IMG/VR virus record: IMGVR_UViG_2872152978_000002
Length of the DNA: 35,535 bases
Reading direction: 5' to 3' (one strand)
DNA from: a virus
Taxonomy: Duplodnaviria > Heunggongvirae > Uroviricota > Caudoviricetes
Position numbers and translations under genes: made by a program. Below the pieces are notes generated by a model, which ran no database searches, was not told the DNA's origin, and saw only the letters and a program-made list of their open reading frames with translations. This document shows, in pieces, positions 7,213 to 35,535 of the stretch (position 1 is its first letter; each line of letters opens with the position of its first letter).

Positions 7213-8022
7213 ATGACGAAAATTAGTGAACGATGGAAGCACAATGGCATTACTGAAGGTTATTGCAATATTTGTGGGAAATATGGCTTGCTCACAAAAG
7301 ATCATGTTCCTCCAAAGTGCGCCATAACCTTAGGCCCTGTTTTGCAGAAAACAGTTAGCGAATTTTTTGGTATTCAGGAACCAGTTAAACCATTAAATGC
7401 TAAAAATGGCTCTTATTTCAGAACCATTTGCAGCCACTGTAACAATAAGGTATTAGGTGGGCTCGATGTTGCAATTGAAAATGTAACAAAGTCCTTTAAA
7501 GAACAGTTAAGTCGATATATGAATGGTATGAATGTATATCCATTCATTAGAATACCTTTTGATAGCATATCTTTCACTAAGGCTATGATTGGGCACGTGC
7601 TATCAGCAACTTCAGTTGAAGATTGTAAAAAAGAACCCGTAGATAGCCCCTTCTATACACCTTTAAAGGATTATGTTTTGGGTAAAAATTCAAGTTTTGA
7701 GGAAACTCATGATATTTACTACTGGTTTTACCCACACAGAATGCACATATCCGCTCAAAGTGTAGCATTTATGAACGAAGGACATGTGGCATTTATTTGT
7801 GCTTTACATTTTTTTCCTATCGGTTTTATTATCACAATGAAAAATGAAGGAACATACCCTGCCCACTCTACAAAATTAGAACTTGAAGATAAATTCCTTA
7901 CATTTAATATGACCTCTATAAATTATGAGTATACGACATTTCCATTTGTAAATCTTAAGGGAAACCAAATGTATGCGATAAGCAACGGTCATACTTGTGT
8001 GAGTTATCCAATAATTAAGTGA
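7213..8022 (+). CDS. HNH-motif nuclease-like protein with an unknown C-terminal domain, 269 aa
   Basis: N-terminus carries C-x2-C (CNIC), DHVPPK, a conserved Asn and C-x2-C-N-x-K (CSHCNNK), the spacing typical of zinc-bound HNH endonucleases. GAGGGA Shine-Dalgarno before the ATG. About 35% GC, unlike the P2 backbone. C-terminal ~190 aa has no motif I recognise. Confidence 0.75.
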   Translation: MTKISERWKHNGITEGYCNICGKYGLLTKDHVPPKCAITLGPVLQKTVSEFFGIQEPVKPLNAKNGSYFRTICSHCNNKVLGGLDVAIENVTKSFKEQLSRYMNGMNVYPFIRIPFDSISFTKAMIGHVLSATSVEDCKKEPVDSPFYTPLKDYVLGKNSSFEETHDIYYWFYPHRMHISAQSVAFMNEGHVAFICALHFFPIGFIITMKNEGTYPAHSTKLELEDKFLTFNMTSINYEYTTFPFVNLKGNQMYAISNGHTCVSYPIIK

Positions 8023-8162
8023 CGGCTAAATCATACAATCTACGCATGTTCACTTTCTACATATACCATCTATAATGTCCGCTGTTGGCACAAAGCAGAC
8101 GCCCACTCTCACGCGAATGCTTTGCCCTTGACTTGCCAACAACCGTATCGCTTGCTCCGCAA

Positions 8163-9440
8163 CTATGGTTTTTTATTAGAATCTTCGCCACTAAATAAAT
8201 TATAATAAATTGATTTTATTAGATATCTGTCAGAATCTATATGGTCAGCACGAGTAGCATGCTCTAATGTTTCAAATGCTAGGGTTTGTGCGGCTTCAGC
8301 AAAAATTCCAGGCCAACCCTTACTCAGCATCGACAGTCCTTTAAGGACCCTTATCTGAATTTCCCTCATACTGGCACCATCGCGCGCAACAGGTGAGAAA
8401 AAGTCTTCAAGTAGATCGTTATTCTGAAGTGGTGCAACATGTACAGAAGGATATTTCACTTCTATTTCATCAGATTTATTCTGCGCGTAAGCGGAAAGTA
8501 TACGTACACCTCTGCCAATGACATCAATGGCGGTTCCAGGATCGTTCACTGCGGGGGAAAGGGCTCGGCAGGCTATTTCGGCCATGACGCTAAGACAAAA
8601 TCGGGGGTCCTGAGCAAATGAACGTACATCCGAGACAATAATCGTCTCAAGTAAATCGGTGCTGATTGATGACTCCTGGCCCTGACTCAGGTACAAAACT
8701 GGCGTGGACGGATGTATGAAACTGCCCGGCTGCGCCACGAGGTATACATGACGGGGATCATTGGTCAGCAGCTTGCTGAGTTTCACCATATCAACATATT
8801 CAACATAGCCAATCTTTTTCGGATAAACTGCAACCGTTCCTTTCGGCTGTTCATTGTTCTCAAGCCATGGATATCCGCCGAGACAGGGATTTCTTGCTCT
8901 CGCAATAAATGTTTCGATGGCCGCCTGTTCTACTTTTGCCGTTGTCTCACCAACCCTCCCCAGAGAGGTCAAATGCTGTATCCAGCGAAGCAATGTGATG
9001 AGGATTAAGGCAATGACAACCAGTGTTACAATGAATAAAATGACTCTCCCCCTTTCTCCATAAGCTCCCATATTGAGGGCAATAATCCCTACCAGACTGA
9101 AGAGAAAAGAACCGATGAAGGTGGCCAGTACATTTTGTGTGGTGACGTCTTCAACAACTAAACGAGTAGCTCTGGGAGTCACATTAGTAGTGGCTGAACC
9201 GTAGGCTGTGACCATGATGCTCAGCGAAAATGTGGTCACTGCCAGCATACTCGATGCCAGTATGTTCAGAATGTTATCGACTGCTTCCGCACCAACCTTC
9301 ACGGAAACCGACTCAGGTATCATTGATTTAAAAAGAATTGATAAAAGGGCCGTTATTATTGCGACAATTGCGAATAACGTTGCCCTGAACCATAGTTTTT
9401 TAAATGTCTGCTTCAGCATCCATTTCCAGCGTGAAATCAT
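8163..9440 (-). CDS. Membrane protein with four N-terminal TM helices and a ~250-aa soluble domain (DUF2254-like, from memory)
   Basis: Four hydrophobic segments in the first ~160 aa. Start placed at the Met preceded by GAGGGA (the track ORF starts 15 nt upstream, inside the terminator T-run). Family assignment is from recollection only. Confidence 0.55.
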   Translation of the reverse strand: MISRWKWMLKQTFKKLWFRATLFAIVAIITALLSILFKSMIPESVSVKVGAEAVDNILNILASSMLAVTTFSLSIMVTAYGSATTNVTPRATRLVVEDVTTQNVLATFIGSFLFSLVGIIALNMGAYGERGRVILFIVTLVVIALILITLLRWIQHLTSLGRVGETTAKVEQAAIETFIARARNPCLGGYPWLENNEQPKGTVAVYPKKIGYVEYVDMVKLSKLLTNDPRHVYLVAQPGSFIHPSTPVLYLSQGQESSISTDLLETIIVSDVRSFAQDPRFCLSVMAEIACRALSPAVNDPGTAIDVIGRGVRILSAYAQNKSDEIEVKYPSVHVAPLQNNDLLEDFFSPVARDGASMREIQIRVLKGLSMLSKGWPGIFAEAAQTLAFETLEHATRADHIDSDRYLIKSIYYNLFSGEDSNKKP

Positions 9441-9461
9441 TCTGCATTCCCTCATATTGCA

Positions 9462-9492
9462 GCCGGGATAAATAAATGCCGCCTCTGTGGCG
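9462..9492 (-). terminator. Intrinsic terminator between the BCCT transporter gene and the downstream membrane protein gene
   Basis: ATGCCGCC-TCTGT-GGCGGCAT hairpin followed on the minus strand by TTTATTTATC, 12 nt after the transporter stop codon. Confidence 0.55.
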
Positions 9493-9503
9493 GCATGTTG
9501 CTG

Positions 9504-11507
9504 TTAACGAACCAGATGCAGGAAGTGCAGGTGTTTTTCGTACTGGTCCAGTATGTCATTAATCAGCTGTTCCTGATTCCAGCCCATTACATCATAATTT
9601 TGGCCGCCCTCTTTGAGATAGACTTCAGCGCGATAATATCGATGTTGTTCACTCTGCTGCTCATCATTATCCAGCGCAGCGAGCGCGAAGGTCGGTGAGT
9701 TATACCCGCGAAGCCTCACTTCATATATATAATTCAGCTCGTTGCCCAAATCGACTTCAAGGCGAATACGATCCTCGGCGGCGTCACTGATGTGGCTTAT
9801 CGTTCCCTGCTTGTTAAGTTCCTCCTGAACCAGCGTCATGGCGGGTTGGATAATGTCGTCCATAAAACGTTTCACAAGAGAGCGCTTCGGCAAATACGCG
9901 ATATTGCGTAACCTTCTCTGCCAGGGAATTGGGTTACGTGCAGCCGTAGGAGCAATAGTCGCCATGCTAAGGCTTTCACGCTTGGTCAAATCCCGACGCA
10001 GGGCTTTTAACAGTCCGTATATGGATATTAATAAGATAACTGAGAAGGGCAATGCACTCGCTATCGTTACGGTTTGCAACGCACTCAGCCCCCCTGCGAT
10101 CAGCAGGGCAATAGCAACAACGCCCATGAGCAATGCCCAGAAAATTCGCTGCCAGACGGGCGTGTTTGCCACCCCACCTGATGCCAGAGTATCCACAACC
10201 ATTGCCCCCGAATCAGCAGACGTTACAAAGAAGACGATGACCATCGCCATTGCAATGAATGACAGCACGGAAGAGAACGGGAAATGCTCCAGGAAATTAA
10301 ACAGGGCAAGCGCAACATCCTGCTGAACGGTATTGGCGAGGTCAGTGGCGCCCTGGTTCATGATGAGATAGATGGCGCTGTTTCCAAACACCGTCATCCA
10401 CATGAGCGTAAAGCCGGCGGGAACAAACAACACGCCAGTCACGAACTCACGAATTGTCCTGCCGCGGGAAACGCGTGCAATGAACATACCTACAAACGGC
10501 GACCATGAAAGCCACCATCCCCAGTATAATAATGTCCAGCCCCCCAGCCAGTTGCTCGACTTGGGTTCATACGCGTAAAGGTTGAACGTTTTACTCACCA
10601 GTTCCGACAGATAACCACCCGTATTTTCCACAAATGACTTCAGCAGAAGCACAGTGGGACCCAGGCACAAGACCAGCGCCAGGAGCAACACCGCCAGGCC
10701 CAGATTAAGCTCAGACAGGATGCGTATTCCCTTGTCCAGGCCGGACACCACCGAAATCGTCGCTAACCCCGTGATGACCACGATCAAAATGACCTGTACC
10801 GTTTCATTGATGGGCACGCCGAAAAGATGGTTCAAACCGGCATTCACCTGCAATACACCGTAACCCAGCGATGTTGCAACGCCAAAGACAGTGCCTATCA
10901 CGGCGAAGATATCAACCGCGTGGCCTATAGGCCCGTAAATGCGATCGCCGATAATGGGATAGAGCGCAGAACGCAGCGTTAAAGGCAGACCGTGACGGTA
11001 ACTGAAAAAGGCCAGAATCAGCGCCACGATGGCATAAATTGCCCATGCGTGCAGACCCCAGTGGAAGAACGTCAGGCGCATGGCTTCCTTCGCTGCCGCA
11101 ACGGTCTCTGGAGTGCCGACAGGTGGCGAAAGATAATGCATCACAGGTTCGGCAACGCCAAAGAACATCAGGCCGATCCCCATCCCTGCCGAAAAAAGCA
11201 TCGCGAACCAGGAGTGGTAGCTGAAATCAGGCTGCGCATGGTCTGGGCCCAGCTTTATATCACCGTAACGTGAGAGTCCAAGGAACGTGACGCTCAGTAA
11301 AATCAGGGCCACAGCAAGTATGTAGAACCAGCTGGCATTCGTGAAGATTTGTTGCTGAAGTAGTTTAAAATTTTTGTCGGCGACATCCGGGAATACGGCG
11401 GCAAAGGCGACAAGAAGGAAAATTAGCAAAGCAGATGTAAAGAATACCGCTTTGTTAACCTGGCTTGTAGACTTCTTTGGGGTTGTATCATTTTCACTCA
11501 TAATCAT
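9504..11507 (-). CDS. BCCT-family transporter, BetT-like (choline/betaine type), 667 aa
   Basis: BCCT signature GWTLLYWGWWLSWSPFVGMFIARVSRGRTIREF; overall collinear with E. coli BetT as I recall it, including the C-terminal ...DILDQYEKHLHFLHL tail. Confidence 0.85.
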   Translation of the reverse strand: MIMSENDTTPKKSTSQVNKAVFFTSALLIFLLVAFAAVFPDVADKNFKLLQQQIFTNASWFYILAVALILLSVTFLGLSRYGDIKLGPDHAQPDFSYHSWFAMLFSAGMGIGLMFFGVAEPVMHYLSPPVGTPETVAAAKEAMRLTFFHWGLHAWAIYAIVALILAFFSYRHGLPLTLRSALYPIIGDRIYGPIGHAVDIFAVIGTVFGVATSLGYGVLQVNAGLNHLFGVPINETVQVILIVVITGLATISVVSGLDKGIRILSELNLGLAVLLLALVLCLGPTVLLLKSFVENTGGYLSELVSKTFNLYAYEPKSSNWLGGWTLLYWGWWLSWSPFVGMFIARVSRGRTIREFVTGVLFVPAGFTLMWMTVFGNSAIYLIMNQGATDLANTVQQDVALALFNFLEHFPFSSVLSFIAMAMVIVFFVTSADSGAMVVDTLASGGVANTPVWQRIFWALLMGVVAIALLIAGGLSALQTVTIASALPFSVILLISIYGLLKALRRDLTKRESLSMATIAPTAARNPIPWQRRLRNIAYLPKRSLVKRFMDDIIQPAMTLVQEELNKQGTISHISDAAEDRIRLEVDLGNELNYIYEVRLRGYNSPTFALAALDNDEQQSEQHRYYRAEVYLKEGGQNYDVMGWNQEQLINDILDQYEKHLHFLHLVR

Positions 11508-15890: not shown

Positions 15891-16238
15891 TCAACTCACA
15901 GGGATGGTTAACGAAAGTGGCTGGCCGGTGTCGTTGTGCTGACCGGTTAACGTGACCGTCATTCGCCCGTCAAAACTGCGCGCCGTGGTGACGGATGACA
16001 GGGTGACGCGGGGTTCCCATTTCAGCACTGCCATGTAACAGGCGACCTTAATCTGCAACTCAAGCGCCGGGGTCTGCGGCTGGTCAATCATTGATGCCAG
16101 CAACGAGCCGTAATCACGACGCATCACCCGTGAGCCGACCGGTGTGCGCAGGATATCGCCGATACTCTGGCTGATATGCTCAAGGTCAGTGACCGTCAGG
16201 CCATCACTGCGATTCATTCCGAGATAACGCGCTGTCAT
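15891..16238 (-). CDS. W: Baseplate protein W, 115 aa
   Basis: 115-aa ORF downstream of V; P2 gpW length and position. Confidence 0.88.
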   Translation of the reverse strand: MTARYLGMNRSDGLTVTDLEHISQSIGDILRTPVGSRVMRRDYGSLLASMIDQPQTPALELQIKVACYMAVLKWEPRVTLSSVTTARSFDGRMTVTLTGQHNDTGQPLSLTIPVS

Positions 16239-16863
16239 AGAGGACTCCCGGTTGTGCCGCCGCTGTCGCCGGGGTGTTTATGGGTATGCAGTACCTTCCC
16301 GTTTGATGAAAGTTCACCGCCGGTGTGTTCAATGTTGCCGCGCATCGTCCCGCCCTTCTGCACTTCCAGCGTGCCGGTAATCAGCTTGTTGGTGCAGACC
16401 ACCTCCGGTGTGTCCAGGGTGACGCGGGTTGATGCTTTCACCATGACCACCGGCACCGTGGCAGTAACAGAATCAGAAGCCGTCACGCTGGCCGTTTTAA
16501 TTCCGCTTACCGTGAGTGCACTGGTTTCAGGTTCATACTCAATCACCGCCCCGTCAGGGAAACGGATATGCAGGGCATCCGCCGACGCCGACGGCGCGGG
16601 TTATCGCCGGAATAAATCCCCGGCAGAACGAACGCCGTGTCGAGTTCACCGCCCACGGCCAGAATCAGCACCTGTTCCCCCACGGAAGGTGCCCACCATG
16701 TGCGCGAACGACCGGCGCGATGGGTCAGCCACTGAAGCCAGTCGGTGCACATGCCGCCGGTCTGCACACGGCAGCGACCGGCATTAAGGTCGGTTTCGAC
16801 GATAATGCCAGTGCGAATCATATTGCGTATAAAGCGAAGAATTTCATTGTATTGTGCATTCAT
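16235..16863 (-). pseudogene. V: Baseplate spike gene V, split by a frameshift (or sequencing error)
   Basis: N-terminal part (MNAQYNEILRFIRNMIRTGIIVETDLNAGRCRVQTGG...SGDN) and C-terminal part (...ADALHIRFPDGAVIEYEPETSALTVSG...GSPL) lie in different frames. They join if 2 nt are removed or 1 added near 16596..16600 in a GCGCCG-rich run; the joined length is about that of P2 gpV (211 aa). Confidence 0.7.
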
Positions 16864-16949: not shown

Positions 16950-18023
16950 ATGAGTACTTACTTTTTCTCGTCAGAAACAATGAAAGAATTGTTCAAAGAT
17001 TATCTGGTCTTTTTGAACACGCTGACTCCCGGCACAAACTTTGAATCAAGCAGAAACAAAATAATTGCTCAAGCAATAAACTTCATTTCCGAAAACCCTG
17101 AAGATTGGGACAAAAAATCCCAGTACAACATTGCTATGATTGGCGACACCTTTAAAAGTTTCTTAAGAGAAAAGGGAGAAGATAACAACAGCATCAACCT
17201 TATATTCACTTGCTTTTTTAGATTTATCATTGAACCAAGCATTCTCTCTCCGGAAATAGAGTCTCACTTTTCACCACTAAGAACCATCAAGGATTTTGCT
17301 CTGTATAACTATAATGAATTCGATGAGCGGAGCAGAGCACAGATAGACTTTTCTCTTAGAGAACTGCCATTAGCAATGGTTAAAGAAGTTTTAAGCTCCA
17401 GCAATGTTGACACATATAAAAAATACATTGATAGTTTAAACGAAGGGCGTCAATTTTTCGAAAAGTGCGACTCCTTCTTAAAGGAGCAACATGCCAAAAT
17501 AGAGTCAATCAAAGAGTCATTAAAAGGGTATGAGGTCGCATTTAATTTTGTTGGATTGTTTGAAGGCTTTAATTCACTTGGCAAAAAGAAAGAAAGTGAA
17601 ATCATGCTATCAAGAATAATTCTTATCATCTTGGCTATAATCATTCCCTCCCCGCTGATATACTATGGAATGCATAAATTACCAGCTCTCGAAACGACAA
17701 ATGCTGCCACATATTTTATGTCAGCACTACCTTTTGCATCAGTTACATTGATTTTCATGTATTACTTTAGAGTTGTACTGCTAAATCATATATCGTTACG
17801 AACTCAGATTATGCAAATAGAACTCAGAAAGAGCCTTTGTCAGTTCATTCAGAGTTATAGCGACTATTCCTCAGAGATAAGGAAAAACAATCCGGAAGCG
17901 CTTTCAAAATTCGAAGACGTAGTATTTTCAAACATCATGCTATCCGATGATAAGATACCATCTACATTTGATGGCATTGAGCAAATAGCATCGTTAATCA
18001 ATTCATTAAAAAATGGAAAGTAA
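16950..18023 (+). CDS. Hypothetical 2-TM membrane protein (~357 aa) at the P2 orf30 moron position
   Basis: AT-rich ORF divergent from V. Mostly helical N-terminal ~240 aa, then two hydrophobic helices (IILIILAIIIPSPLIYYG and YFMSALPFASVTLIFMYYFRVVLL) and a ~90-aa tail. Followed by an intrinsic terminator. Start codon uncertain (weak Shine-Dalgarno). Confidence 0.6.
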   Translation: MSTYFFSSETMKELFKDYLVFLNTLTPGTNFESSRNKIIAQAINFISENPEDWDKKSQYNIAMIGDTFKSFLREKGEDNNSINLIFTCFFRFIIEPSILSPEIESHFSPLRTIKDFALYNYNEFDERSRAQIDFSLRELPLAMVKEVLSSSNVDTYKKYIDSLNEGRQFFEKCDSFLKEQHAKIESIKESLKGYEVAFNFVGLFEGFNSLGKKKESEIMLSRIILIILAIIIPSPLIYYGMHKLPALETTNAATYFMSALPFASVTLIFMYYFRVVLLNHISLRTQIMQIELRKSLCQFIQSYSDYSSEIRKNNPEALSKFEDVVFSNIMLSDDKIPSTFDGIEQIASLINSLKNGK

Positions 18024-24505: not shown

Positions 24506-26278
24506 ATGACCATCACCACAGACACCACTCTTTTACACGACCCGCGTCGTCAGGCGGCGCTGCTGTACTGGCAGGGATTTTCCGTGCCGCAGATTGCCGC
24601 CATGTTGCAGATGAAACGCCCGACGGTGCAGAGCTGGAAGCAGCGCGACGGCTGGGACAGCGTTGCCCCCATCAGCCGTGTCGAAATGAGTCTGGAAGCG
24701 CGGCTGACCCAGCTCATCATCAAACCGCAGAAAACCGGCGGTGACTTCAAGGAAATTGACCTGCTCGGACGCCAGATTGAACGACTGGCACGGGTCAACC
24801 GTTACAGTCAGACCGGCAACGAGGCAGACCTTAATCCGAACGTCGCTAACCGCAACAAAGGCGGGCGTCGCAAACCGAAAAAGAATTTTTTCAGTGACGA
24901 GGCCATCGAAAAGCTGGAGCAGATTTTCTTTGAGCAGTCTTTCGACTATCAGTTGCACTGGTATCGCGCCGGGCTTGAGCACCGCATCCGCGATATCCTG
25001 AAATCCCGCCAGATTGGCGCGACGTTTTATTTTTCCCGCGAGGCGCTGCTGCGCGCCCTGAAAACCGGCCATAACCAGATTTTTCTGTCGGCCAGTAAAA
25101 CGCAGGCGTATGTGTTCCGTGAATACATCATCGCCTTTGCCCGTCTGGTTGACGTTGACCTTACCGGTGACCCGATTGTCCTGGGCAATAACGGCGCAAA
25201 ACTGATTTTTCTCGGCACCAACTCCAACACCGCACAGAGCCATAACGGCGACCTGTACGTCGATGAGATTTTCTGGATCCCGAATTTTCAGGTACTGCGT
25301 AAGGTGGCATCAGGTATGGCCTCACAGAGCCACCTGCGCTCGACCTATTTCTCCACCCCGTCCACGCTGGCGCACGACGCCTACCCGTTCTGGTCGGGTG
25401 AACTGTTCAACCGGGGACGCGCCAGCGCCGCCGAACGCGTGGAAATCGACGTCAGTCATAACGCCCTTGCCGGAGGTCTTCTCTGTGCGGACGGCCAGTG
25501 GCGGCAGATTGTCACCATTGAGGACGCCCTGAAAGGCGGCTGCACGCTGTTCGACATTGAGCAGCTCAAACGCGAAAACAGCGCCGACGATTTTAAAAAC
25601 CTGTTCATGTGTGAATTTGTTGACGACAAGGCATCGGTGTTCCCGTTCGAGGAGCTGCAACGCTGCATGGTCGACACGCTGGAAGAATGGGAAGACTATG
25701 CACCCTTTGCCGCCAATCCGTTCGGCTCCCGCCCGGTATGGATTGGTTACGACCCGTCACACCGTGGCGACAGTGCCGGATGCGTGGTGCTGGCACCGCC
25801 GGTGGTGGCCGGTGGCAAATTCAGAATACTTGAGCGTCACCAGTGGAAAGGCATGGACTTTGCCACCCAGGCTGAATCCATCCGCAAACTCACCGAAAAA
25901 TATAACGTCGAATACATCGGTATTGATGCCACCGGCCTCGGTGTCGGCGTGTTCCAGCTCGTGCGCTCGTTCTATCCTGCCGCGCGCGATATCCGCTACA
26001 CACCGGAAATGAAAACCGCAATGGTGCTCAAGGCAAAAGACGTTATCCGCCGTGGCTGTCTGGAATATGACGTCAGCGCCACCGACATCACCAGCTCGTT
26101 TATGGCTATCCGCAAGACCATGACCAGCAGCGGACGCATCGCCACCTATGAGGCCAGCCGCAGCGAGGAAGCCAGCCACGCCGACCTCGCCTGGGCGACC
26201 ATGCACGCCCTGTTAAATGAGCCACTCACCGCCGGTATCAGCACCCCGCTGACATCCACCATTCTGGAGTTTTACTGA
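24506..26278 (+). CDS. P: Terminase ATPase (large) subunit P, 590 aa
   Basis: Start trimmed to MTITTDTTLLHDPRRQAALLYWQGFSVPQIAAM...; P2 gpP length and position. Confidence 0.9.
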   Translation: MTITTDTTLLHDPRRQAALLYWQGFSVPQIAAMLQMKRPTVQSWKQRDGWDSVAPISRVEMSLEARLTQLIIKPQKTGGDFKEIDLLGRQIERLARVNRYSQTGNEADLNPNVANRNKGGRRKPKKNFFSDEAIEKLEQIFFEQSFDYQLHWYRAGLEHRIRDILKSRQIGATFYFSREALLRALKTGHNQIFLSASKTQAYVFREYIIAFARLVDVDLTGDPIVLGNNGAKLIFLGTNSNTAQSHNGDLYVDEIFWIPNFQVLRKVASGMASQSHLRSTYFSTPSTLAHDAYPFWSGELFNRGRASAAERVEIDVSHNALAGGLLCADGQWRQIVTIEDALKGGCTLFDIEQLKRENSADDFKNLFMCEFVDDKASVFPFEELQRCMVDTLEEWEDYAPFAANPFGSRPVWIGYDPSHRGDSAGCVVLAPPVVAGGKFRILERHQWKGMDFATQAESIRKLTEKYNVEYIGIDATGLGVGVFQLVRSFYPAARDIRYTPEMKTAMVLKAKDVIRRGCLEYDVSATDITSSFMAIRKTMTSSGRIATYEASRSEEASHADLAWATMHALLNEPLTAGISTPLTSTILEFY

Positions 26279-27312
26279 TGAGCAAGAAAAAAGGGAAAAC
26301 ACCGCAACCTGCGGCAAAAAAAATGACCGCCAGCGCCCCGAAAATGGAGGCATTCACCTTTGGTGAGCCGGTGCCGGTACTCGACCGCCGTGACATTCTG
26401 GATTACGTCGAGTGCATCAGTAACGGCAGATGGTATGAGCCACCGGTCAGCTTTACCGGTCTGGCAAAAAGTCTGCGTGCTGCCGTGCATCACAGCTCAC
26501 CGATTTACGTTAAACGCAATATTCTGGCCTCGACATTTATCCCGCATCCGTGGCTTTCCCAGCAGGATTTCAGCCGCTTTGTGCTGGATTTTCTGGTGTT
26601 CGGTAATGCGTTTCTGGAAAAGCGATACAGCACCACCGGTAAGGTCATCAGACTGGAAACCTCACCGGCAAAATATACCCGCCGTGGTGTGGAGGAGGAT
26701 GTTTACTGGTGGGTACCGTCCTTCAACGAGCCGACACCTTTCACGCCCGGCTCCGTATTTCACCTGCTGGAGCCCGATATTAATCAGGAGCTGTACGGCC
26801 TGCCGGAATATCTCAGCGCCCTTAACTCTGCCTGGCTGAATGAATCGGCCACGCTGTTCCGCCGCAAGTATTACGAAAACGGCGCACATGCCGGATACAT
26901 CATGTACGTCACCGATGCCGTGCAGGATCGCAACGATATCGAAATGCTCCGCGAAAACATGGTGAAGTCGAAAGGCCGCAACAACTTTAAAAACCTGTTT
27001 CTCTATGCCCCACAGGGGAAAGCCGACGGCATTAAAATTATCCCGCTCAGTGAAGTGGCAACGAAGGACGATTTTTTTAATATCAAAAAAGCCAGCGCCG
27101 CTGACCTGCTGGACGCGCACCGCATCCCCTTTCAGTTGATGGGCGGCAAGCCGGAGAACGTCGGGTCGCTGGGCGATATTGAGAAAGTGGCAAAGGTCTT
27201 TGTCCGCAATGAGCTTATCCCGCTACAGGACAGGATCCGCGAGATAAACGGCTGGCTCGGCCAGGAAGTCATCCGCTTTAAAAACTACTCACTGGACACT
27301 GACAACAGCTGA
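26278..27312 (+). CDS. Q: Portal protein Q, 344 aa
   Basis: 344-aa ORF immediately after P (ATGA overlap), adjacent to cos; P2 gpQ length and position. Confidence 0.9.
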   Translation: MSKKKGKTPQPAAKKMTASAPKMEAFTFGEPVPVLDRRDILDYVECISNGRWYEPPVSFTGLAKSLRAAVHHSSPIYVKRNILASTFIPHPWLSQQDFSRFVLDFLVFGNAFLEKRYSTTGKVIRLETSPAKYTRRGVEEDVYWWVPSFNEPTPFTPGSVFHLLEPDINQELYGLPEYLSALNSAWLNESATLFRRKYYENGAHAGYIMYVTDAVQDRNDIEMLRENMVKSKGRNNFKNLFLYAPQGKADGIKIIPLSEVATKDDFFNIKKASAADLLDAHRIPFQLMGGKPENVGSLGDIEKVAKVFVRNELIPLQDRIREINGWLGQEVIRFKNYSLDTDNS

Positions 27313-27482: not shown

Positions 27483-27501
27483 GTGCTTTCCCCGCCTCGC
27501 C
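27483..27501. other. cos cohesive-end site (19 nt)
   Basis: GTGCTTTCCCCGCCTCGCC is the reverse complement of the P2 cohesive end GGCGAGGCGGGGAAAGCAC (from memory), located between Q and the old/tin position as in P2. Confidence 0.75.
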
Positions 27502-27931
27502 CGCCCGCTTTATGGGTCGGTTTTAATGCAGGTGCACGAATACACCGGAGGCGCGCCGGCACTGGTGGCGCTCAGACGCAACAGGGGAGGAAAACGCATG
27601 CAATTGAATGCATTTCTAGGCACACCTAAAAATGAAAAAATGTTATGACAATTAATCATTTTAAACACACTGATTAAGGGTAGAATTCTCCTAGTAAAAT
27701 CATAGAAAAACCGCTATCAAACCAGGCTTTTGCCTTGCTTCATTTTTTTAGATGAGTCTAAAAATTTGAAATTATCATTAGATGAAAATATTCTTTCTGC
27801 GGTATGCCGAATGACTGAAGTATTGAAGACCGCAGCCTGCTCCTCATTACAACTGAATACACCCTCATGACCATCAAACTCGCCCGCCAAAAGAAGGTTT
27901 TTTGATACTGGGAACAAAACTAAAGTGTCTT

Positions 27932-28645
27932 TTACACCAAACCCGGGGAATAAGGGCCTCGTGCTAATTCAGGATTAGTCCACATTAAGCAAACTGGGTT
28001 ATCTGAAGTTATAAATGACCCTTGCCCATCAGATATGGTCATAAGTGACCAGTTGCGTTGATGCAACAACTTGGTGATAACAGGTACACATTTCATTTCC
28101 ATATCTATCATGAACTCTCTGATTACATTGATTTCGAAATTATCCCCATCCACAAAATTTTTAATTTTTTCGTAAGCGAGATCATATGGCAAAGACTCAC
28201 CCATTTCTTTCTCATAAGCTAATTTGCAATCGTCCCAACGCTCAGCCGAACTAACTGAGGATTTCATGATAAACTTTGCTATTTGTTTCAATGGAGATGA
28301 TAAATGTTCTCGCTGAGCAGGCGTACGTATTGCCAATAAGGAAATAAACTCCAGAATAACATCTTTGGTTTCGCCTGAAAACTCGCCCCCCTCCTCAAGT
28401 TTTCTTAAATGAGTAGCGACACTGCCTTCAAACTCTGCAAGAGAACTCTCGAGATAGTTTGGGTCAACTCCATCCAATTCTAATCGGTTGAAATCTCTAA
28501 CCCCCCCGACATTGCGAGTATTACTCTCAAAGGTTTTGCGCTCCTTTAAATCTATTACAGTTAATTTTGATTTTTTCCCCCCATTACTTGTAAACCCTTT
28601 CAAATAACATTGGGATAAAAAATGATGATGCCTTGCAACACTCAT
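27932..28645 (-). CDS. DUF4238-like protein at the P2 old/tin moron position, probably truncated by a frameshift
   Basis: Starts MSVARHHHFLSQCYLKGF and contains SDNPV, which I recall as DUF4238 hallmarks. GGAG Shine-Dalgarno 6 nt before the chosen ATG. AT-rich. The reading frame of the downstream 66-aa ORF (27717..27917) is open from 27967, so one indel in the CCCCGGG run would give a ~305-aa product. Confidence 0.65.
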   Translation of the reverse strand: MSVARHHHFLSQCYLKGFTSNGGKKSKLTVIDLKERKTFESNTRNVGGVRDFNRLELDGVDPNYLESSLAEFEGSVATHLRKLEEGGEFSGETKDVILEFISLLAIRTPAQREHLSSPLKQIAKFIMKSSVSSAERWDDCKLAYEKEMGESLPYDLAYEKIKNFVDGDNFEINVIREFMIDMEMKCVPVITKLLHQRNWSLMTISDGQGSFITSDNPVCLMWTNPELARGPYSPGLV

Positions 28646-28748
28646 ACTCAGCTCCGTTATGGCTATAATCGCATAAATAATAAGCACTTATATTGCAATC
28701 ATCTAGTTAAATACACAATATTTATGACTCCGAAATTTCATTAAATCA

Positions 28749-30962
28749 CTATTGATAGGTTTTACCAATTAGTGCCAGCTCGAAATGGATGCGTGGAATC
28801 TGCGAACGTTCAGCCTTTGTCATCCGCCCTGATGGCGCTATCTGGTACGGTTTTAATGGTTCGCAGTTTCTTTGTTGCCAATTCGGTCTCGGTGCACCAT
28901 GTTTTAATGCACTCCTGAGCACCGTCACAACTTCCGGGTCATCCCATCCGATAACACCACTATCAACCAGATTTAACACCGCTGCGGCATGCTCAGACGG
29001 TGTAGGGTGCATAACCGGAACGTCACCGCCGGTGAACTTTCCACAGTTATTGACAGGACTCCGAGGCGCGGCGATGCCGCTTTTTAAAGTCAAAGGCTCA
29101 ACGACCGGCACTTTCGGCACAATGCGCCAGTCCGTCGTTCTGGTGATATGAATATGACGCGCGCCGAGATGCGGCGCGTAAATGCCGACCACTCTCTCGA
29201 CTTCTTCCTCGTACTCGTTAACTTCATCCGACGGGCTACGGGCGACCCTGACAGTCTGACAATCGCGCGGGACATTTGCCCCACCCTGCGCGCTGATATA
29301 CAACGCAAAATCACCACTGTCTGCGGCGGCGCGAGCAGCCTCGACGCGCTCGTCAAACTCATCAGCAATGCTGACGCCGCGCGGCAATTTGCGTAGTTCA
29401 CGGTAAGCCCCCATTGTCGGCAGACCAACCGTTTTAAATTGTGGGATGCGCCACGTTGACGCCCATGCGGTAACAGCCGCGGCAGTATCTTTAAGCGGCT
29501 TACCGGTATCGTTATCGAGCTGACCATCCAGTGCATAGCCGTCGATATTTTTTGAGATGTATTTCGCGATATACCCCGCAGCACCGCCCCGGTTAAGGTG
29601 TTTCGCCTGAAAACGGTTTCGCGCAGCTCCTCTTTCGTCGCCATCCTCTTTGAGCGCATAGCGACGCATGATTTCGATAATCTGGTTACGCTGGCGCGGA
29701 TTACAAAAAAGCATCATATGCCAGTGCGGCGTTCCGTCGTGGTGTGGCTCGACGACACGCAAACCGTAGACCTGTAAATCATTATCCTTGAATGCCGTGC
29801 GCATCAGGCTCCAGATACGGCAGAGATAACGCTGCGCATCCTTTGGATTAAATGCCTCATCGTTCCAGCCGTGATTTAGCTGGACGGTTTTACTTTCGCC
29901 TTTTCTGACCTGACGTGTCGGGTGATACTTTGACGGCGCGGTCAGCGTGATAAACATCCCCACATCACCCTCTGCTGCGGCGTAACGCTCAATACCGGCA
30001 ATGGTGTTCATCAGCTCCATCCGGCGAATTTCAGGATTAGAAATACTGCCCATCACCTTACTGATAAGGTCGATGCGCTCGCCGGTTTCCCTGTTTTCAA
30101 GGTCACATGATTTAAGAAATTCCAGATTTGCCTGGCGGCGCGCACGCACATCACGAATGGCATGTTTACTGGCATAAGGAGAACGGTCTTTATTGACCTC
30201 CCCGACAGCTATCAGTAACGCCTCATGCCAGCGCATACGCTGGCCTTTAAGCTGATGAGTCCACCACTCATCGTTAAACAGGCGGGCAATGGCAGAATAT
30301 GCCTGCCTCGTGGTCATCTGTCCTTTACGGTATTTTTTCCAGTAGAGCGGGGAAATATTGAAAGCACGTGCAGCGCCAGCAACATGACCATAAAGGTGAG
30401 CCTGCGCCTCATCCGTAAACAGCGATTCTTTTTCGCCATGTGCATCAACCCAGGCATCGCAGAGTTCCTCATACATCATGAAAAGCTGCGATGAGATACG
30501 GGCAGCAAACTTTTTCAGCTCCTTGTCATTCATTCCCGGCAGGCGCGCATAGTGGTCACGCTCTGCCAGAAACAGCAACGACGCGTCGGTGTTCATTTCA
30601 TGGCGCTGATTCACACGCTCAATGCGCGGCCATAAACGACGCTGAAAAGTGGATGTGAGGAAATAAAACCCGTGCACCGGGCTTTTATTGCGCCGGATGT
30701 AGTCATAACGTGAAGTAAACAGCGAGCGCAAAAAGTAAGGCAGGCGGTTAATCGTGGATAAAACACCTTGCACCTGACGCATCTCGTCACGTGTAAGGGG
30801 TCTTTCGCGCCCGACAGCCTCGCGTGGCGCGTTCCATGCATAAGCACCGGTAAACGTCTTACCGGTGCCTGCGGCAAATGCTGACGGAGGGACAAAACGC
30901 CCGGAGGCTTTAACGGCCATATGAGCCAAAAGCCTCTGAACAACGCCTGCTGAGTTGCTCAA
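28749..30962 (-). CDS. A: Replication initiation protein A (rolling-circle nickase), 737 aa
   Basis: Large ORF at the end of the early operon in the P2 gpA position; start codon choice uncertain (P2 A is about 761 aa by memory). Confidence 0.88.
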   Translation of the reverse strand: MSNSAGVVQRLLAHMAVKASGRFVPPSAFAAGTGKTFTGAYAWNAPREAVGRERPLTRDEMRQVQGVLSTINRLPYFLRSLFTSRYDYIRRNKSPVHGFYFLTSTFQRRLWPRIERVNQRHEMNTDASLLFLAERDHYARLPGMNDKELKKFAARISSQLFMMYEELCDAWVDAHGEKESLFTDEAQAHLYGHVAGAARAFNISPLYWKKYRKGQMTTRQAYSAIARLFNDEWWTHQLKGQRMRWHEALLIAVGEVNKDRSPYASKHAIRDVRARRQANLEFLKSCDLENRETGERIDLISKVMGSISNPEIRRMELMNTIAGIERYAAAEGDVGMFITLTAPSKYHPTRQVRKGESKTVQLNHGWNDEAFNPKDAQRYLCRIWSLMRTAFKDNDLQVYGLRVVEPHHDGTPHWHMMLFCNPRQRNQIIEIMRRYALKEDGDERGAARNRFQAKHLNRGGAAGYIAKYISKNIDGYALDGQLDNDTGKPLKDTAAAVTAWASTWRIPQFKTVGLPTMGAYRELRKLPRGVSIADEFDERVEAARAAADSGDFALYISAQGGANVPRDCQTVRVARSPSDEVNEYEEEVERVVGIYAPHLGARHIHITRTTDWRIVPKVPVVEPLTLKSGIAAPRSPVNNCGKFTGGDVPVMHPTPSEHAAAVLNLVDSGVIGWDDPEVVTVLRSALKHGAPRPNWQQRNCEPLKPYQIAPSGRMTKAERSQIPRIHFELALIGKTYQ

Positions 30963-34571: not shown

Positions 34572-34599
34572 AATCTCCCTTACACGGGCTTATTTTTTT
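34572..34599. repeat. Prophage att core, int-proximal copy (28 bp, one extra T)
   Basis: AATCTCCCTTACACGGGCTTATTTTTTT; identical to 145..171 except for a T-run of 7 rather than 6. Confidence 0.85.
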
Positions 34600-35204: not shown

Positions 35205-35535
35205 GGTGATGCTGCCAACTTACTGATTTAGTGTATGATGGTGTTTTTGAGGTGCTCCAGTGGCTTCTGTTTCTATCAGCTGTCCCTCCTGTTCAGCTAC
35301 TGACGGGGTGGTGCGTAACGGCAAAAGCACTGCCGGACATCAGCGCTATCTCTGCTCTCACTGCCGTAAAACATGGCAACTGCAGTTCACTTACACCGCT
35401 TCTCAACCCGGTACGCACCAGAAAATTATTGATATGGCCATGAATGGCGTTGGATGCCGGGCAACTGCACGCATTATGGGCGTTAGCCTCAACACGATTT
35501 TACGTCACTTAAAAAACTCAGGCCGCAGTCGGTAA
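35205..35535 (+). mobile_element. IS1 insertion sequence, partial (runs off the window)
   Basis: Starts with the IS1 terminal inverted repeat GGTGATGCTGCCAACTTACTGATTTAGTGTATGATGGTG, followed by insA. Confidence 0.88.
35260..35535 (+). CDS. insA: IS1 InsA transposition regulator, 91 aa
   Basis: [43 protein letters not shown]... matches IS1 InsA; stop codon at the window end. Confidence 0.88.

Follow-up and report, generated by a model that had tools for sequence, protein, structure and literature searches.

A DUF4238 defence gene carrying a one-base frameshift in the cos-proximal hotspot of a P2-like prophage from Shigella dysenteriae

The DNA analyzed here (the window) is a stretch of 35,535 nucleotides that is 100% identical to Shigella dysenteriae CP026840.1 (GCA_002950155.1), where it corresponds to a prophage integrated between yegQ and yegR. 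A search of the literature for CP026840, GCA_002950155 and SRR11596843, the latter being a sequencing run considered below, retrieved no paper. Around cos the gene order is Q, cos, the DUF4238 gene (27717..28645) and A, and the features of this region, including the two homopolymers that are relevant for the discussion, are the following:

26278..27312, plus strand: portal gene Q, intact, one border of the hotspot
27483..27501: cos, 19 nt, gtgctttccccgcctcgcc in the window, which is the reverse complement of P2 GGCGAGGCGGGGAAAGCAC
27717..27941, minus strand, -1 frame: 3' part of the DUF4238 gene, codons F236 to V309 plus the stop
27932..28645, minus strand: 5' part of the DUF4238 gene, native codons 1-235 followed by L, V and TAA, 237 aa
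27942..27948, minus strand: frameshift site, CCCGGGG on the plus strand and CCCCGGG on the coding strand, where both frames overlap
28501..28507, minus strand (C7 on the plus strand): second homopolymer, G7 in the coding sense, codons V46-G47-G48-V49, intact in the window
28646..28751, minus strand: intergenic, from the end of gene A to the start of the DUF4238 gene, with the presumed promoter and ribosome-binding site of the latter
28752..30920, minus strand: replication endonuclease gene A, intact, the other border of the hotspot

The 19 nt at 27483..27501 are what we take to be cos, on account of their correspondence to the P2 cos sequence. Promoter and ribosome-binding site of the DUF4238 gene are presumably contained within 28646..28751, although a consensus scan of this segment revealed no promoter-like site. 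GC content drops to 0.35-0.41 over 27600..28800 relative to 0.52-0.60 in the flanks, in agreement with the AT-rich character that the first-pass annotation had attributed to the gene. That annotation had also proposed that the gene replaces old and tin of P2, and the slot, between gpA and gpQ by cos, is indeed the published hotspot in which P2-like phages carry defence genes (Rousset et al. 2022, PMC9122126). When compared with old and tin of P2, the window gene shares their slot as well as their nature of low-GC accessory 'moron' providing prophage-borne defence against other phages, but it is one gene instead of two and its protein is unrelated to theirs. Consistently, Pfam and PADLOC scans of the window gene produced DUF4238 as the sole match and no similarity to Old (ATPase plus TOPRIM nuclease) or Tin.

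As it stands, the gene is distributed over two frames of the minus strand, the 237-aa ORF and the overlapping downstream frame, both being present as first described. Translation of 27932..28645 yields a product that starts with MSVARHHHFLSQCYLKGF, contains TSDNPV and ends in GPYSPGLV immediately before the stop, and that has its own RefSeq entry (WP_284520992.1, Shigella dysenteriae). The -1 frame, in which the stretch PLFPGFGVKDTLVLFPVSK is read, contains in its 3' part the previously listed 66-aa ORF (27717..27917); this frame is open further upstream, as had been noticed, its actual limit being 27968 rather than 27967. When the intact protein was searched against the window by tblastn, it aligned in two segments, covering residues 1-236 and 231-309. 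Addition of one base to the run at 27942..27948 generates a protein of 309 aa. The earlier proposal that a single indel in the CCCCGGG run splits the gene is thus correct as regards the run and the one-base repair, while its coordinates (27943..27949) were off by one and the repaired size (~305 aa) was slightly underestimated.

The assignment to DUF4238, also advanced in that first reading, is supported by the Pfam profile PF14022 (DUF4238), which matches the 237-aa ORF over profile positions 2-207 of 281 with an E value of 5.9e-33 and 114.9 bits, the gathering cut-off of the family being 27 bits. Profile positions 220-280 are matched by the downstream frame, which agrees with the suspicion that it encodes the missing C-terminus, and the repaired 309-aa protein covers positions 2-280 of 281 (E 4.2e-39, 135.1 bits). 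In the window allele the whole PF14022 domain is therefore not found on one polypeptide, as the match ends at profile position 207. The repaired protein is also recognized from end to end (1-309 of 309; E 1.5e-219, 725.5 bits) by the PADLOC model PDLC03000, named 'DUF4238-Pers', and likewise matches PHROG 29785. The intact frame of ~309 aa required of DUF4238-Pers is absent from the window, where the one-base deletion brings the frame to a stop after codon 237.

A single DUF4238 protein from the P2 hotspot was reported to confer strong resistance to T7, the tested construct, pFR101, carrying the allele of E. coli TA007 along with the upstream sequence native to it (Rousset et al. 2022, PMC9122126). 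Since T7 resistance was demonstrated there for a single protein, the DUF4238 system is to be considered as already validated, and the suggestion that the window holds a single-gene defence determinant is endorsed for the system by an allele 92% identical to the repaired protein (284/309 residues). Moreover, system #50 in Table S5B of the same work, with 80 occurrences, has exactly the sequence of the repaired protein. The gene resembles Rst_DUF4238/DUF4238-Pers in its Pfam domain, in its length of 309 aa once repaired, in its gpA-gpQ slot by cos and in being a single gene; it differs in that the window copy has a one-base deletion and ends at residue 237, whereas protection against T7 was shown on the TA007 allele. 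The likeness is even closer to WP_001515549.1 / YP_009211908.1 (gp11 of Escherichia phage pro483, NC_028943), with DNA identical over 1,111 nt except for one missing G, an identical repaired protein and the same neighbours A, cos and Q, but these genes contain C5G3 within an uninterrupted 930-nt coding sequence, unlike the window. Neither the defence gene nor its hotspot is new, and apart from being pseudogenised the window copy is ordinary.

The lesion was then examined by comparison with 27 other copies, namely those from 14 complete E. coli genomes, 2 pro483 records, 1 GTDB genome, 2 metagenome contigs and 8 IMG/VR contigs. In the 14 complete E. coli genomes and phage pro483 the locus shows at least 99.6% identity to the window, each match comprising 1,112 bases relative to 1,111 in the window. 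The remaining copies come from scanning three collections (GTDB, metagenomes and IMG/VR) with one pattern that admits either allele; its matches, in one GTDB genome (Kluyvera intermedia), two metagenome contigs and eight IMG/VR contigs, all display G5 and a 309-aa ORF. Altogether, G5 is found on the plus strand (coding C5G3) in 27/27 other copies, while the window has G4 at 27945..27948, the wild-type coding strand at the site being TCC CCC GGG TTT GGT, that is, S P G F G. The missing G is the sole difference in 1,111 nt with both E. coli Res13-Lact-ER01-35 and phage pro483. An intact 309-aa ORF is present in the three annotated records retrieved among the 16 from E. coli and pro483 (3/3), as well as in all 11 other loci, the annotated intact copies having a 930-nt coding sequence (WP_001515549.1, YP_009211908.1). 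Alignment with intact copies hence places the frameshift in one base of the very run that had been named at the outset.

The size of the homologues agrees with this picture. Nearly all of 155 close homologues and of the best 150 among 7,797 family representatives have lengths of ~300-335 aa and cover the whole profile. A natural end of the protein at 237 aa was for this reason rejected, in accordance with the initial view of the truncation as unnatural. Among database contigs, the intact protein appears on at least 1,000 and the 237-aa form on 2, the G4 allele being confined to CP026840.1 and an independent assembly, SRR11596843.

The structure of the mutant site leaves room for the idea that some full-length protein is still produced, either through a -1 ribosomal or transcriptional slip in the run or through a programmed frameshift. 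In the 0 frame the site reads C CCG GGU, formally a slippery heptamer of the type X XXY YYZ, and a -1 slip on it would restore exactly the wild-type S-P-G-F-G. This heptamer, however, exists solely through the deletion, and it is not known as one of the efficient ones in E. coli. In addition, all 27 other copies are single-frame and homologues elsewhere are single ORFs of ~310 aa, so recoding is not a conserved trait, none of the 27 needing a frameshift. Neither does the RNA downstream favour it: the minimum free energy of the following 100 nt is -17.8 kcal/mol relative to a shuffle mean of -21.7 (z = +1.35), with 186 of 200 shuffles folding at least equally well. Considering that no downstream RNA structure beyond that of shuffles is observed and that the two-frame layout is absent elsewhere, a programmed frameshift was rejected, and recoding in any of these forms is regarded as highly unlikely.

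A second reading would take the G/C homopolymers as a reversible ON/OFF switch for a costly or self-toxic defence, the window representing the OFF state. The intact gene contains four G/C runs of at least 5 bases (G6, G7, G6 and C5), above the mean of 0.53 in mononucleotide shuffles (P = 0.001), but shuffles of synonymous codons already give a mean of 2.4 runs (P = 0.15), which indicates that Gly-Gly and Pro codons account largely for the runs. The G7 run, too, seems to have given rise to a frameshift allele, of independent origin: WP_284521012.1 and WP_256549290.1 (from S. dysenteriae and E. coli records) are N-terminally truncated proteins of 265 and 271 aa starting with 'MSGGVRDF', and their sequences would fit an independent G7-to-G8 frameshift at 28501..28507. 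Against a switch, the G7 run is interrupted (GGGGGTG) in the TA007 allele, which is the one tested, and OFF alleles are very rare, 2 contigs versus at least 1,000, this rarity making phase variation a reading of low probability. Tracts of 5-7 bases are, besides, short for phase variation in a mismatch-repair-proficient enterobacterium. We consider such a reversible switch extremely unlikely. Very unlikely too is the combined possibility that the G/C runs serve as mutational OFF/ON switches (C5-to-C4 and the apparent G7-to-G8), with the C4 allele perhaps leaky by a -1 slip.

An erroneous base call is the alternative of more weight for the missing G. Relative to the closest E. coli prophage (NZ_CP062901) the window presents 99.57% identity over 35,205 nt and three indels, all of them in homopolymers:

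16598..16600: G4 to G3, baseplate gene V split
27945..27948: G5 to G4, DUF4238 gene broken
about 34593..34599: T6 to T7, intergenic

The other 42 genes of the window are full length. Two of the three indels are gene-breaking one-base deletions in G runs, and, as judged from assemblies, single-base deletions in G/C homopolymers such as those of the DUF4238 gene and gene V are also what long-read consensus errors typically look like, which would be in line with a G under-called in the CP026840.1 assembly and a gene that is really intact. The CP184822.1 assembly of the same prophage is full of indels, so such errors do occur in public records of this prophage. On the contrary, a Logan contig assembled independently from SRR11596843 has the 237-aa product among its called proteins as well. 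This contig differs from the window by 6 SNPs and no gaps over 17,274 nt, is devoid of the IS1 beside yegR and diverges by 1.7% in its left flank, and SRR11596843 must consequently derive from a different strain. Furthermore, no record of the gene V fragment exists for SRR11596843, and the fact that the indels in gene V and in the DUF4238 gene behave differently in that run renders one systematic artefact less likely. An assembly or sequencing artefact is accordingly improbable, though it retains some weight, and the presence of the same allele in an independent assembly from a different strain makes it quite probable that the G4 allele of the DUF4238 gene is a real, inherited deletion rather than a read error. 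The first-pass annotation had offered the gene as possibly inactivated or mis-sequenced; the evidence favours the former, as a real mutation.

The consequences of such a deletion for the protein can be envisaged on an AlphaFold model of the 309-aa form (53 homologues; pLDDT 89.9, pTM 0.86), which consists of an N-terminal hairpin, a helical core (64-195) and a beta-sheet. Strands 198-204 and 219-222 precede the break, while strands 241-246, 251-256 and 262-266, helix 268-281 and three more strands are situated past it, the truncation thus costing half of the predicted beta-sheet. The conserved columns T241, P246, G255 and N275 are lost as well, N275 being invariant even in homologues at 27-42% identity. 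With these predicted strands, the helix and the conserved positions gone, the 237-aa product is most likely unstable and inactive, and the lysogen would probably be deprived of the T7-type protection given by the intact gene. Overall, we hold with good confidence that the locus contains an Rst_DUF4238 gene in a P2-like prophage, frameshifted by the loss of one base and most likely inactive.

Regarding the intact protein, H7/H8, Y14, E73, R112, W199 and N275 are invariant and R50/D51, E66, E183, R197 and D215 nearly so. The conservation pattern of the polar ones among the invariant residues (H7/H8, Y14, E73, R112 and N275) suggests an enzyme active site, and the intact protein might then be an enzyme-like sensor/effector organized around H7/H8, Y14, E73, R112, W199 and N275, our working guess being a single-chain sensor/effector acting on T7-type infection. 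No relative of the DUF4238 protein was found in the PDB by sequence or fold, and no mechanism for DUF4238 was found in the literature searched. A Foldseek search of BFVD gave a sole significant match, V9IQH5 of Stenotrophomonas phage Smp131 (E 7.5e-11), likewise a P2-like temperate phage; at 12% identity and a TM-score of 0.41, this protein is uncharacterised and hence uninformative on mechanism. Distant homologues (46-51% identity) occur in prophages and integrative elements as stand-alone genes with changing neighbours, which fits a self-contained defence protein. These neighbours include a Gabija-like pair of OLD-type ATPase and UvrD helicase, as well as GmrSD with a type I restriction subunit, a KAP NTPase or HicAB.

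Taken in sequence, the events that we propose start from an Rst_DUF4238 gene, encoding a single-protein defence, in the accessory hotspot close to cos of a P2-like prophage. From the coding-strand C5 run of this gene the present lineage would have lost one base, leaving a stop two codons later and the last 74 codons out of frame. The deletion might have arisen by replication slippage and would persist under relaxed selection. Genome decay is well known in Shigella, S. dysenteriae included. WP_284520992.1, listed by RefSeq as an ordinary DUF4238 protein, is better read as the product of a pseudogene, the anti-phage system to which it belongs being a validated one. A census of defence systems would over-count if it scored Rst_DUF4238 as present in the CP026840.1 genome. 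Beyond correct annotation the value of the case is small, that of a documented example of a rare state in a genome-decay species. A 2026 survey found that defence genes of P2 hotspots are usually swapped and that pseudogenes are rare among them (PMC13586616), and a pseudogenised DUF4238 gene is on that account an uncommon state. Both the defence system and the hotspot were already known, and the gene decay here is real but ordinary.

Baseplate/spike gene V (16235..16863, minus strand) deserves separate consideration. Its one-base deletion at 16598..16600, coding C4 to C3, splits it into an N-terminal piece and a 103-aa C-terminal piece, the GTG start of the latter overlapping the upstream stop (GTGA, 16543..16546). 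An ENA gut-metagenome scaffold with a 94.6%-identical V gene exhibits the same CCC allele and the same split, and this occurrence on two records suggests that the event, or else an assembly error, has recurred, or that recombination has taken place. Among database records, the 103-aa C-terminal fragment occurs in CP026840.1 and one ENA scaffold only, while the 106-aa N-terminal fragment (from its ATG) matched no database record. Since V fragments are not on record for SRR11596843, gene V is probably intact in that run, and the deletion in the window may be a later event or an error. Were the deletion real, the prophage would probably be defective.

CP184822.1 (GCA_048841865.1), from E. coli, shows 3 indels within 710 nt of gene V, with many genes uncalled, and its DUF4238 gene is annotated in fragments only (198-245 aa, XQK... 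accessions). The assembly has the appearance of a long-read one rich in errors, and for this reason its truncated proteins are not to be taken as biology.

Other features of the prophage were also noted. A second accessory slot extends over 7213..11507, between tail-fibre assembly gene G and sheath gene FI, in the position of Z/fun in P2. This slot and two further regions contain the following:

7213..8022, plus strand: orphan gene, 269 aa, second accessory slot
8163..9455, minus strand: DUF2254 membrane protein, second accessory slot
9504..11507, minus strand: BCCT betaine/carnitine/choline-type transporter, second accessory slot
16950..18023, plus strand: orphan gene, 357 aa, on the opposite strand between late genes S and V
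35206..35535: left end of IS1 with insA, just beyond yegR

None of the three genes of the second slot matched the PADLOC defence models, and the BCCT-type transporter is unusual cargo in a P2-like phage. The 357-aa orphan had no match in Pfam or PADLOC; near its C-terminal third it contains a stretch that is hydrophobic and transmembrane-like, and it is very widespread, being found in 1,160 blocks of the gene-position collection. At the yegR site, IS1 is absent from both E. coli NZ_CP062901 and the SRR11596843 contig, and its insertion fits a Shigella origin and IS expansion. Finally, the T7 run at 34593..34599, which is T6 in the E. coli reference prophage, is located just downstream of the integrase gene on the yegR side, within an intergenic stem-loop-like sequence (gggcttattttttt atgcataagccc), and this allele is common to the SRR11596843 contig.
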